This document shows positions 13,113 to 58,747 of a DNA stretch of 64,000 nucleotides, piece after piece. The notes beneath the pieces were generated by a model. The model searched no databases, was not told the DNA's origin, and saw only the letters and a program-made list of their open reading frames with translations. Origin of the DNA: a bacterium (lineage in GTDB: Bacteria; UBA8248). Each line of letters begins with the position of its first letter. The first letter of the stretch is position 1. The position numbers were made by a program, and so were the translations under genes. The stretch is taken from NCBI GenBank assembly GCA_965221165.1, contig CBDCRP010000003.1:1920001-1984000 (forward strand), given 5' to 3'.

Positions 13113-13482
13113 AAAAAGAGGGGGTTACTCATTATTCCCATTCCTCGCCAGAGGACCCAACTCGAACAGGGAATGGTACTTGCTACTCCACGAGGTTGAG
13201 CAGCCAATGAGTAACCCCCGATTTATTCACCTTCGCCTATATACCCTGAATGCGCCCTCGAAATTCGCCCCGCCATCCGGGAGCGATGCTCCGAAATAAA
13301 AAGAGGGGGTTACCCATTGCTTCCCATTCCGTGCCGGGGGACTCAGCCCCTACAAGGAATAGTGGTTGCGACTCCACGAGGTTGAACAGCCAATGAGTAA
13401 CCCCCAATTTCTTCACCTTCGCCTATGCGCTCCGAATGCACCCTCGAAACTCGCCCCGCCGGCGGCCGTCGAGACGCCGAAA
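13113..13482 (-). repeat. Imperfect tandem duplication (period 185-186 bp) of a lipoprotein 3' end plus a ~100-nt structured element
   Basis: Copy A 13113-13296 and copy B 13298-13482; each has GGGGGTTAC(T/C)CATT...AATGAGTAACCCCC. Confidence 0.9.
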
Positions 13483-14167
13483 GCACCCGCGACGGAGCCC
13501 GGGGCTTCTTTTGCTTCCGCATCCATCACTGAAGCCTCGCCGTAGAATTCACCGCTCCATTCTCCCGAGTATTCACTCCCGGATACGTCGCCCGCGGCCA
13601 CCCCGTGAAAGGGCTTTCCACGTCGCCGAATGCGGCCTCCATGAGAATGATTCTTCCGTCCGGCGTCTCATCGCCCTGAAGAGTGATTCCCGAGAGAACG
13701 CCTCCGATGGTTTTGCCGTCAAAATCAGCTTCAAGCCCTATCCTGGCATCGAAATGCCGGACTTCGCCCGCCCGGGTATGTGCGCCGAGGGCGCCTCCTT
13801 CGTAGGTTGCCGAACCTTCGATCCTGTCGGGCTCACCGCCCAAGTCGAAGGGAGTTCCACCAGGGAGGAGGGCGCCGGGATCGAATTCGGGATTCTCGGC
13901 GAGGAAGAAAGGCGCGCCGCCGAAGGCGACGGCGCCGAGATCGAAAGCGTCGCCATCGGGAGCGGACAGCCAGGCTCCGGCCGAGAGATAGTCCACGTCC
14001 GCGTCCGCAGACGTTTCTCTATCCGAGGCGACCGCGACGCCGCTCGCAAGCGCCTCGCCCGCGCCATAATTTCCGGCTTTCGGCACTGCGGCATGACCGC
14101 CGCTTCCGCCGCCGCAACCGGAAATCATGACTGCCTGCAAGACGAGTATGAGAAAGATGTAAGGCAT
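13413..14167 (-). pseudogene. TbpB/HupA-like beta-barrel surface lipoprotein, split by a 1-nt frameshift near 13600
   Basis: Lipobox MISGC followed by GGGSGG; GSATYEGGALG, LEADFDGKTIGG; continues in another frame as GEWSGEFYG..SVAGAFG..FEGAFGA; break falls in a G-run. Confidence 0.75.
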
Positions 14168-14318
14168 ATGGATTAAACCCTTACGAAATCGGCACGTATT
14201 CCCCTTTTCTGGTTCTCGCAAAAAAATGCTACCTCCCGGAACCATAGCGATGCGTACGAGGCCGACTTTGGCGGCATCTCCACTTCTTTGCCTCTGGCGA
14301 AACATTTTATTTACATAT

Positions 14319-14348
14319 TTGACTAAACGTTCATTTTAGTTTTATAAT
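14319..14348 (+). promoter_or_regulatory. Near-consensus sigma70 promoter with no recognisable protein gene downstream
   Basis: TTGACT-N18-TATAAT in an AT-rich context; overlaps a possible divergent TTGTAT-N18-TATTAT for the lipoprotein. Confidence 0.65.
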
Positions 14349-14354
14349 ACCCCT

Positions 14355-14640
14355 CTAAATTAGTTTCATACAAAAGCCGCTTTCGTATTTGAATTGTTGA
14401 ATTCGCTATGAGGCCAGATCACCCATACAATCCTCCCAAATCCACACGAGGATTGCTTTACCTCAAGCCCCTGGTCGAAATCCGGGCTGGTTGGCATACA
14501 ATCCACGATTTGGAAGAAAAGTGGGTTCCCGCCTATTCCAACTCTTGGGAAGAGTCGTCTTGTATTCAGCGGGCAGCCCGTGAGATCGACCACACATGGA
14601 TTGTATGCCGAGTAAAATAGTGGAGGATTGAATTTGACTT
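14355..14640 (+). ncRNA. Candidate structured ncRNA of unknown family
   Basis: Hairpins at 14428-14455 and 14466-14488; long stem 14493-14505/14597-14609 with nested helices; two loop-loop complementarities. Confidence 0.55.
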
Positions 14641-14924
14641 GTCAAGTGTGAAATGGGGCTTTTATACGAACCTTACAATATCTTTAAGAAAAAATTCGCT
14701 ATCCCCCGAGGAGGCGAAAAACAGGAAACACCACCTCTTCGATTCAGGGAATCCCCTCCAAATCATCTCTCTTTTCGCTCATCCGGCATCCGGTTTCCCG
14801 TCGTGTGTTAGGCCTGTCTTACTTGAAATTTTCTCCGCGGCAGGGTTCGGGGCACGCTCCGCCTGACTCTTTGAATCCACCTGCCTGCAAGCCCGGCGCG
14901 CGCCCATGACGCCCGGGCGGGACG

Positions 14925-15362
14925 CTACTTCTGCGCCCAGTCGGGAATTTCCTCGCCCTCGGGGACGTACTGCAACAGCTCTATCGCGAGGCCTCCCGTG
15001 GTGGCGGCGTTCGCGAAGGTGATGACGCCGCCGCGCGACCCGTAAGTGGGCGGAAGCGTGAACTCCACCCCCCTGGCCTCCCATTCGGCCATCGTGGCCC
15101 TCAGGTCATCGACGACGAAGCAGATATGGTGCAGCCCCTCGCCGCGCGCGGCGATAAACCGGTTGAGCGGGGCATCGGGATTGCTCATCTCCACGAGTTC
15201 CATCACGGCGCCTTCGGCCTCGTAGAAATCGAGACGGGCGGTGTTGCCGGGGCGCTCATAGACCTTTCTCTCCAGGAACCGAAAACCCAGCAAATCCTCC
15301 ATCACGTCCTTTTTCCCGTCCAGATTGCTGACGGCGTAGCCCAGGTGATCCACTTTCGGCAT
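14925..15362 (-). CDS. VOC family protein, methylmalonyl-CoA epimerase-like
   Basis: VDHLGYAV, MELVE, RGEGLHHICFVVDDL, GGLAIELLQ. Confidence 0.85.
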   Translation of the reverse strand: MPKVDHLGYAVSNLDGKKDVMEDLLGFRFLERKVYERPGNTARLDFYEAEGAVMELVEMSNPDAPLNRFIAARGEGLHHICFVVDDLRATMAEWEARGVEFTLPPTYGSRGGVITFANAATTGGLAIELLQYVPEGEEIPDWAQK

Positions 15363-58671: not shown

Positions 58672-58747
58672 ATCCCCGACGCTAGGTGGCCCACGGCACC
58701 CCTCTTGAAAAGGGGGATTTCGGGTTCAAATCCCGACTTGGGCAACA
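58672..58747 (+). pseudogene. Degenerate tRNA or tRNA-like element (anticodon loop reads UGA)
   Basis: Intact anticodon arm CCCCT-CTTGAAA-AGGGG and T arm TCGGG-TTCAAAT-CCCGA; D arm and acceptor non-canonical; ends ACA. Confidence 0.65.

Follow-up and report, generated by a model that had tools for sequence, protein, structure and literature searches.

A conserved structured RNA with its own promoter, a probable leader of exported-protein genes, in uncultured sponge-associated bacteria

The closest described systems to the RNA reported here are orphan riboswitch candidates and the c-di-GMP-I (GEMM-I) riboswitch. Genes for surface or exported proteins and for exopolysaccharide lie downstream of GEMM-I, as they do in the present family. 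The likeness extends to the architecture: a promoter-proximal 5′ leader in which covarying helices surround conserved unpaired letters, together with a variable hairpin. As with GEMM-I, a long-range pairing competes with a local helix, and the copies are many per genome and partly in tandem. Unlike these riboswitches, the present family has no match among the 4227 models of Rfam, many of its copies lack an adjacent gene, and no clear terminator or SD-sequestering switch could be linked to its aptamer-like part. Putative mobile promoters, which are homologous promoter regions upstream of unrelated genes within one genome, offer a second comparison. Here, too, a unit of promoter and leader appears before different genes, as many as 16 times in a genome, but most of what is conserved is a transcribed, covarying RNA structure and not just a promoter. 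The ompA-type 5′-UTR is a 5′-terminal stem-loop that stabilises an envelope-protein mRNA. Our element likewise has a predicted 5′ end buried in a long helix before envelope-protein genes, yet it is much larger, its internal loops are invariant and it has an alternative long-range pairing, features for which a plain protective hairpin has no need. The phage P1 C4 and P4 CI RNAs, to which an earlier sequence-only reading had likened this locus, are also small, structured and promoter-proximal. However, Rfam searches up to E 10 (this region) and up to E 0.1 (twelve family loci) returned no C4 antisense match, the proposed guide loops are not conserved, and no phage context was seen around the present copy among the ORFs or by Pfam scan.

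The window analysed is the whole stretch of 64,000 nucleotides. Its copy of the RNA lies in an A+T-rich gap (GC 0.39-0.52 versus about 0.62-0.69 in the surroundings), flanked by two minus-strand genes, one of the glyoxalase family and one for a predicted lipoprotein (Table 1). The 213-aa lipoprotein is without a Pfam match, and its gene starts 326 nt past P1, the closing helix of the RNA. The sequence-only reading had proposed for this gap a non-coding structured RNA of no known family with competing or tertiary pairings, and our results support that proposal. The structured RNA is real; the strand, the promoter, the two kissing-loop contacts and the G-U argument assigned to it are not supported.

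Table 1. Features of the locus, in the order in which the minus-strand RNA meets them (window coordinates)
Feature	Position	Strand	Remark
Glyoxalase/VOC family gene	14925..15362	-	Pfam; syntenic, upstream of the RNA; 16/16 orthologous loci
Terminator-like site	14724-14699		With the upstream glyoxalase/VOC gene
-35 box TTGACA	14640..14645 (14645-14640)	-	TGTCAA as plus-strand letters; sequence and family conservation
-10 box CACTAT	14617..14622 (14622-14617)	-	17 nt past the -35 box
P1 5′ strand (GGCAUACAAUCCAUG)	14595..14609	-	At or beside the predicted RNA 5′ end
CGGGCUG	14574..14580	-	P2a 5′ strand (GGG with CCC 14525-14523) and 5′ strand of the long-range pairing
P2b 5′ strand CCCGC	14569..14573	-	Partner GCGGG 14532-14528
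Internal-loop strand UGAAUACAAGA	14558..14568	-	Conserved across the family
P3 hairpin (CGACUCUU CCC AAGAGUUG)	14539..14557	-	Length differs across the family
GGAAUAG loop strand, P2b 3′ strand GCGGG, AACCC (P2a 3′ strand)	14523..14538	-	
P1 3′ strand	14493..14507	-	Partner of 14609-14595
3′ tail CAGCCCG	14483..14489	-	Three bases past P1; partner of CGGGCUG 14580-14574
P4 hairpin	14466..14488	-	Window copy; hairpin H2 of the sequence-only reading, as minus-strand RNA
H1 hairpin	14428..14455	-	Follows P4; no covariation
6-codon ORF AUG GGU GAU CUG GCC UCA UAG (MGDLAS)	14406..14426	-	5 nt past the SD-like box
Promoter-like site TTGACT-N18-TATAAT	14319..14348	+	11/12 positions match; converges on the RNA
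Predicted lipoprotein gene, 213 aa (MPYIFLILVLQAVMISGCGGGSGG...)	13526..14167	-	Likely start 14167; next gene on the RNA strand

The helices that had been read from the single sequence, namely H1 (14428-35/14448-55), H2 (14466-70/14484-88), a perfect 13-bp helix (14493-505/14597-609) and the helices nested in it, are all present in the sequence and in minimum-energy folds. The long rod among them covaries across 63 distinct relatives. In the window, P1 has 15 bp on the minus strand, one U-G among them; inside it P2 joins GGG-U-CCCGC to GCGGG-A-CCC, and P3 pairs 14557-14550 with 14546-14539. Reading the minus strand, we made an independent MAFFT alignment of 30 copies (A3). It gave three helices with 95.4% of the cells paired and 9 pairs changed on both sides, and 0/500 shuffles were as good. 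With the covariance model built from A3 we then aligned 64 matches, which represent 63 distinct sequences (A4). This alignment was fitted to the model and hence leans towards the modelled structure; in it, 93.0% of 1896 cells are paired and 29/31 pairs changed on both sides, which 0/500 shuffles reach, while partners slid by 1-3 columns are 35-50% paired.

All three parts of the rod contribute. In P1, 13/14 modelled pairs changed on both sides and 95.1% of the cells are paired family-wide, with variants such as GGCAUAC/GUAUGCC, GCGACAC/GUGUCGC, GCCACAA/UUGUGGC and GCCAGAU/GUCUGGC among the A4 rows. The figures are 5/5 pairs and 96.2% for P2b, and 8/8 pairs and 91.3% for P3, whose pairing is kept despite its variable length. 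The most conserved letters are unpaired: GAAUACA-A-AC in the internal-loop strand (kept in at least 90% of the 64 aligned members), GGA-AUA-G flanking P3, and C-R-G-CCCG in the tail. The element thus has a structured domain with covariation as well as conserved unpaired letters, as expected of a riboswitch or cis-regulatory leader. The alignments show a rod fold beyond chance and point to a folded RNA that is strongly conserved.

We compared the two strands. The claim that G-U pairs favour the plus strand was reversed by the counts: the same 31 pairs give 858/899 canonical cells with 85 G-U when read as minus strand, and 789/899 with 16 G-U when read as plus. For P1 alone, 400/406 cells are canonical on the minus strand versus 356/406 on the plus strand. 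The promoter agrees. Directly upstream on the minus strand, 61/73 distinct family members carry TTGAC[AT]-N17/18-nAnnnT, while an inward-pointing promoter at the opposite end of the element, sought within 60 nt as a control, was found in 0/73. The -10 hexamer varies across the family (CACTAT is the commonest at 18/61, beside GATCAT, CAAGAT, CAGGAT, CAATAT and others) and ends 1-2 nt ahead of model position 1, that is, about 7 nt before P1. From this spacing we infer that transcription starts at about 14611-14609, with the 5′ end within P1. Because two independent lines, wobble asymmetry and a conserved promoter, agree, we take the minus strand as the RNA strand, and we hold with high confidence that the structured RNA is real and transcribed from it.

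Single-sequence folding gave -94.5 kcal/mol (z -3.8) for the minus strand and -89.7 kcal/mol (z -2.5) for the plus strand, and the described rod forms on either. Two positions speak against the minus strand. One P2a position is an invariant C-A there and a U-G if read as plus, and a change in H1 in four orthologues is a G-U on the plus strand alone. The plus-strand promoter-like site, from which the sequence-only reading had the RNA transcribed, is present and well kept among the orthologues, as TTGACC-N17/18-TAnAnT in 13/17 and TTGACG-N18-TATATT in 4/17 (by eye). It faces the RNA gene from its 3′ side and was not found in other subfamilies (0/73 within 60 nt). Given so well-kept a convergent promoter, an antisense or plus-strand transcript may also be present.

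The tail offers the rod a second partner. The CGGGCUG/CAGCCCG helix is 91.7% paired over 63 sequences; its pair 53/198 is UA in 36, CG in 15, UG in 7 and other in 4, and its pair 47/205 takes four standard pair types. Since this long-range covariation follows a deep subfamily split, it may rest on few independent events. Performing RNAalifold on the plus-strand alignment A2, we obtained the same GGGCUG/CAGCCC pairing; the closing helix was missed owing to alignment gaps. The G run of CGGGCUG is also the P2a 5′ strand, and therefore P2a and the long-range pairing are mutually exclusive. The pairing may be a pseudoknot or a switch, as both fit the sequence. In 35/67 members the minimum-energy fold of the next 42 nt also places the CCCG of the tail in a local hairpin, as its 5′ arm. 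In the window subfamily the stem of P4, put forward earlier as H2, is complete in just 9/17 orthologues, and the remainder have a shifted CGGAC/GUCCG hairpin. Some copies close to lipoprotein genes allow the P1 3′ strand to pair with a segment directly ahead of a short U-run (by eye), and RNAalifold on the region from the P1 3′ strand to the ATG of seven such copies gave no usable consensus.

The loop-loop contacts fared differently from the rod. Both 7-nt loop complements are in the window sequence, as are the repeated CATACAATCC and the segment GGAGGATTG that had suggested a competing fold. The pairing 14436-42/14507-13 is 7/7 in the window only, with 4-6 of 7 in the other 16 orthologues, and 14472-78/14586-92 is likewise 7/7 in the window only, with 3-6 of 7 elsewhere. 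Neither shows a compensating change, and we take both as chance complements of one sequence.

Within the family, the window copy falls in the subfamily with the highest conservation (about 160-171 bits). Sixteen loci are orthologous to it, with the same glyoxalase gene adjoining. The 132-nt core (14481-14612) has 96.9% identity over 16/16 orthologues, the neighbouring glyoxalase gene has 89.3% mean identity, and the intervening spacer is alignable in 1/16. Of the orthologues, only the window copy and its closest relative (L006) have the lipoprotein gene downstream. In 15/17 orthologues the start of a signal-type ORF was sought by script within the next 420 nt and not found, and for this reason a cis role of the window copy itself is uncertain. 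A model search with filters off found no degenerate second copy ahead of the window lipoprotein gene, and the minus strand of 14300-14490 holds no clear intrinsic terminator.

Past P4 lies H1. When 14349-14470 of the orthologues was submitted to RNAalifold, H1 alone appeared, with zero pairs changed on both sides. An SD-like GGGAGGA (14437-14431) overlaps the 3′ arm of H1 (GGAGGAUUG), an arm that closely repeats the P1 3′ strand. Extended to the AUG this arm reads GGGAGGAUUGUAUGGG, so that SD-like box, start codon and near-copy lie in one segment, which by its letters has two alternative candidate partners: the 5′ arm of H1 (CAAUCC) and the 5′ strand of P1 (CAUACAAUCC). In 16 distinct orthologous copies the mini-ORF that follows is MGxxxS-stop in 14 (three by eye), MG-stop in 1 and 32 aa long in 1, and its inner residues vary. 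Past it comes a small purine/U hairpin around an invariant GCGGC, and then the plus-strand promoter site.

A 70-aa ORF also runs across the RNA on the plus strand (14408..14620). It has no Pfam match above noise and is not conserved as a gene: its frame is kept in the window and the closest relative only (2/17), and among the 17 orthologues 6 stop after 2 codons, 8 are in another frame and 1 is mixed. Because the frame is broken in this way and paralogues carry 1-nt indels, we regard the region as not coding.

Short contigs of 152, 185 and 214 nt from three runs, at 90-97% identity, cover 14408-14609. Two of these runs are labelled RNA and the RNA label of the third is a guess; they share 0.04-0.05 of words. 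Among the contig ends, one falls exactly on 14609 and another close to the start predicted for the plus strand; a fourth contig continues into the glyoxalase gene. Such contigs give neither strand, ends nor level, and the uncovered parts of the stretch carry no meaning. They hint weakly at transcription of the region in relatives, with DNA carry-over or read-through possible.

Searching with the model (E up to 0.001), we find 147 matches in 21/23 genomes of one genus, all from uncultured, Nitrospinota-labelled MAGs, with at most 16 matches per genome and 4 in the window genome. By DNA search the three further copies in the window genome are 73-78% identical, and matches occur in 18/22 of the genus's other genomes and in 0/18 genomes outside it. 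A class-wide model search over 51 genomes found matches in 3/28 genomes outside the genus, in three genera (87, 53 and 43 bits). An exact-pattern scan of 185,579 species genomes yielded 35 loci, all in MAGs titled Nitrospinota bacterium, uncultured Nitrospinaceae bacterium or 'bacterium'. In metagenomes, the same kind of scan contributed 8 more loci, of which the model confirmed 7; because such an exact pattern is strict, the yield says little on abundance. The host lineage is one of uncultured sponge-associated bacteria, almost only a single genus.

No Rfam family covers these sequences. We used Rfam 15, whose 4227 models include c4 antisense RNA, 6S, c-di-GMP-I/II, ZTP/pfl, EAR and HEARO. 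At gathering thresholds the whole window gave only two tRNA matches, both elsewhere. Up to E 10, the region 14150-14950 gave eukaryotic lncRNA and miRNA models and SgrS/Pseudomonadales-1, all below half the cut-off, and twelve diverse family loci, searched up to E 0.1, gave one unrelated mir-188 match. The listings and abstracts returned by a full-text literature search contained no RNA elements of Nitrospinota or of the sponge-symbiont lineage. The RNA family is previously undescribed. Its kind is known, that of structured 5′ leaders and orphan riboswitch candidates, and the data require no categorically new mechanism. Its unusual traits are a promoter inside the conserved cassette, units arranged in arrays, and most conserved members that are orphans.

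The genes that follow other family copies are informative. A script found an SD, an ATG and a signal peptide or lipobox 26-157 nt downstream in at least 18/73 members, a 19th match being doubtful. In 14 of the 18 products the lipobox Cys is followed by a Gly run. Members in this leader position include one from another genus (L111) and one from another family (L110). We saw two further signal peptides by eye (L053, L112), and the ORF adjacent to a 33-bit copy (L109) has no signal peptide, again by eye. The script sought signal-like ORFs only, and its counts show association, not that neighbours are always exported. Pfam identified a CsgG domain (E 2e-20) and, below the cut-off, a TbpB_B_D beta-barrel domain (E 7e-4) among the leader-proximal products; the remaining products scanned had no Pfam match. 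Many diverged copies run through a hairpin, a short pyrimidine run and a GAGGAG-type SD to the ATG.

The neighbours differ in other subfamilies. In one, a sugar-transferase gene follows the RNA at 270-440 nt and an O-antigen-ligase-like gene lies opposite; in another, the RNA adjoins an integrase gene. In several genomes, 3-4 units form co-oriented arrays, certain of them only 50 nt apart, each with its own promoter; some units carry a truncated signal-peptide stub, and the last copy directly precedes an intact lipoprotein gene. A U-run comes shortly past the structure in the EPS-type paralogues, and U-runs follow only some subfamilies. By its sequence, the family looks like a promoter-plus-5′-leader cassette. 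Sigma-54 promoter, CsrA-site and k-turn readings of the conserved stretches were tried by eye and misfit the consensus.

A truncated copy of the element also lies on a repeat of about 2.2 kb, which has at least 7 near-identical copies. We considered a transposon guide or scaffold RNA here and rejected it: the repeat encodes an HTH_17 protein, and the five ORFs scanned show no TnpB, IscB or IS110-type domain.

We propose the following working. The RNA would be at least 145 nt long, read from the minus strand (window 14645-14466 onward, the promoter included in the unit). A sigma-70-type promoter (TTGACA-N17-CACTAT) would start it near 14611, so that its extreme 5′ end forms P1. Within P1 lie the G+C helix P2, a conserved asymmetric internal loop (UGAAUACAAGA opposite GGAAUAG) and the variable hairpin P3. 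CGGGCUG can pair either with AACCC in the rod or with the tail CAGCCCG, which overlaps P4. The family's basic form would be a 5′ leader ahead of genes for exported envelope proteins: lipoproteins that begin with Cys-polyGly, a CsgG-like protein and further products with signal peptides. Judged by its letters, the leader is probably a conformational, riboswitch-like regulator: it would change between the exclusive pairings on binding a small molecule or a protein, and would thereby set read-through or translation of the downstream gene in cis. In the window subfamily, the adjacent full gene would have been lost in most species and the SD and 6-codon ORF kept; this copy may act on the mini-ORF, on downstream read-through, or as a free RNA. 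Taken as a whole, a minus-strand promoter with a structured RNA whose family serves as leader or regulator of exported-protein genes is the account we favour, with moderate confidence.

The most serious alternative concerns the window-type subfamily, which could be a small RNA that stands alone and acts in trans, such as a decoy titrating the binder of the leaders. Such an RNA would account for the promoter of its own, for the want of a signal-type ORF within 420 nt in 15/17 orthologues, and for a sequence nearly invariant throughout, loops included (96.9%). Strong copies, moreover, often stand in co-oriented arrays upstream of a weaker lipoprotein-proximal copy, and the EPS-type paralogues have a U-run soon after the structure. 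However, no recognisable terminator lies past the window copy, and the conserved SD and 6-codon ORF resemble an expression platform or a gene stub. We give this alternative perhaps one chance in a few, and it is compatible with a cis role elsewhere in the family.

Conservation might instead act on the DNA, the element being a mobile cassette that carries a promoter, or a site at which recombination shuffles surface-protein genes, and the RNA fold incidental. Many copies do stand ahead of unrelated genes, co-oriented arrays hold truncated signal-peptide stubs, one subfamily lies beside an integrase, and the truncated copy sits on the 2.2-kb repeat. Against this, an inverted repeat predicts no strand asymmetry, yet the G-U cells number 85 versus 16; the length of P3 varies while its pairing is kept; and the unpaired loop strands are the most conserved letters. 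MITE or transposon ends were rejected by the strand bias of P1 given above. We consider DNA-level conservation improbable as a full account, and cassette mobility is in any case compatible with RNA function.

A plus-strand RNA starting near 14355 and held by two 7-bp loop-loop contacts is the least credible of the three, a shade below even that: its promoter matches at 11/12 positions and is kept in orthologues, the window does fold on the plus strand (z -2.5), H1 tolerates a G-U there in four orthologues and one RNA-library contig ends near its predicted start, but each loop pairing is complete in 1/17 orthologues, the family helices lose 69 canonical cells, an inward promoter occurs in 0/73 members within 60 nt versus a minus-strand promoter in 61/73, and the score falls to 23.5 bits from 169.4 on the minus strand, a weak point given that minus-strand sequences were used to build the model.

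A correct call of 'structured RNA' from a single sequence can thus still carry the wrong strand and the wrong tertiary contacts. If our favoured account of a promoter-plus-leader family is true, it adds a large structured RNA class that combines a candidate switch with downstream genes consistently for surface or exported proteins, in sponge bacteria that cannot be cultured. As an orphan riboswitch candidate, its ligand could be sought in vitro without culture. More speculatively, and in our view unlikely on present evidence, a new riboswitch-like class would sense one signal, and up to 16 leaders per genome would control how the cell surface is composed (polyGly-linked lipoproteins, a CsgG-like secretion component and exopolysaccharide genes), with the conserved orphans as decoys or a master copy. 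If true, the favoured account would also open a way to study how these symbionts control their surface, the part of them that is seen by the host.

The near-consensus promoter on the plus strand, which the sequence-only reading had proposed to drive the RNA, faces the minus-strand RNA gene. We found it in one of two forms in 17/17 orthologues (the window copy and 16 other loci). In most of the 17, this promoter overlaps an inverted repeat (TGACC-N4-GGTCA) that has a run of T after it. The site may be the source of an antisense transcript, or may act as a bidirectional stop.

Positions of two features in the window and of the repeat carrying a partial RNA copy
Feature	Location	Strand	Remarks
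Near-consensus promoter	window 14319-14348	+	points toward the RNA gene from its 3′ side
Direct repeat, 162 nt, two units	window 13135-13296 and 13321-13482		186-nt spacing, 79% identity
~2.2-kb repeat	L126:1251-3595 (G002:C1, about 1029450-1031800); also L119-L125

The 162-nt direct repeat is intergenic, with a dehydrogenase-like gene on one side and, on the other, the lipoprotein gene that lies next downstream of the RNA. Translations of the ORFs suggest that a weaker third unit lies upstream of these two. Elsewhere in the window, a candidate tRNA (58681-58744, plus strand) is a weak match, scoring 32.7 bits vs a gathering score of 29.

The window's genome also has an RNA paralogue (L002, G000:C3:743069-746256) situated immediately downstream of another gene of the glyoxalase family. 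This gene encodes 194 aa and is different from the one beside the window RNA; the gene and RNA pair may reflect a segmental duplication.

In one subfamily (loci L026, L004, L028, L029 and L033), the long closing helix P1 is extended by 5 bp. At L026 (G020:C1, about 4430313-4433425), the RNA precedes a phage-type integrase gene (Arm-DNA-bind_3, Phage_integrase) by ~520 nt, and the RNA copy is followed by a second, partial one. The ~2.2-kb repeat occurs in at least seven near-identical copies across three genomes. The RNA copy inside it is truncated, with neither the promoter nor the 5′ strand of P1; the opposite strand bears an ORF encoding an HTH_17 domain. This repeat is probably a mobile element that has captured part of a leader.

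At seven loci (L099, L100, L101, L102, L103, L106 and L107), the promoter-plus-leader units form co-oriented arrays of 3-4 units each. Some units are just 50 nt apart, and some carry short signal-peptide stubs. Each array ends in an intact polyGly lipoprotein gene. The arrays look like 5′ ends, decayed or reshuffled, of genes from a surface-protein family.
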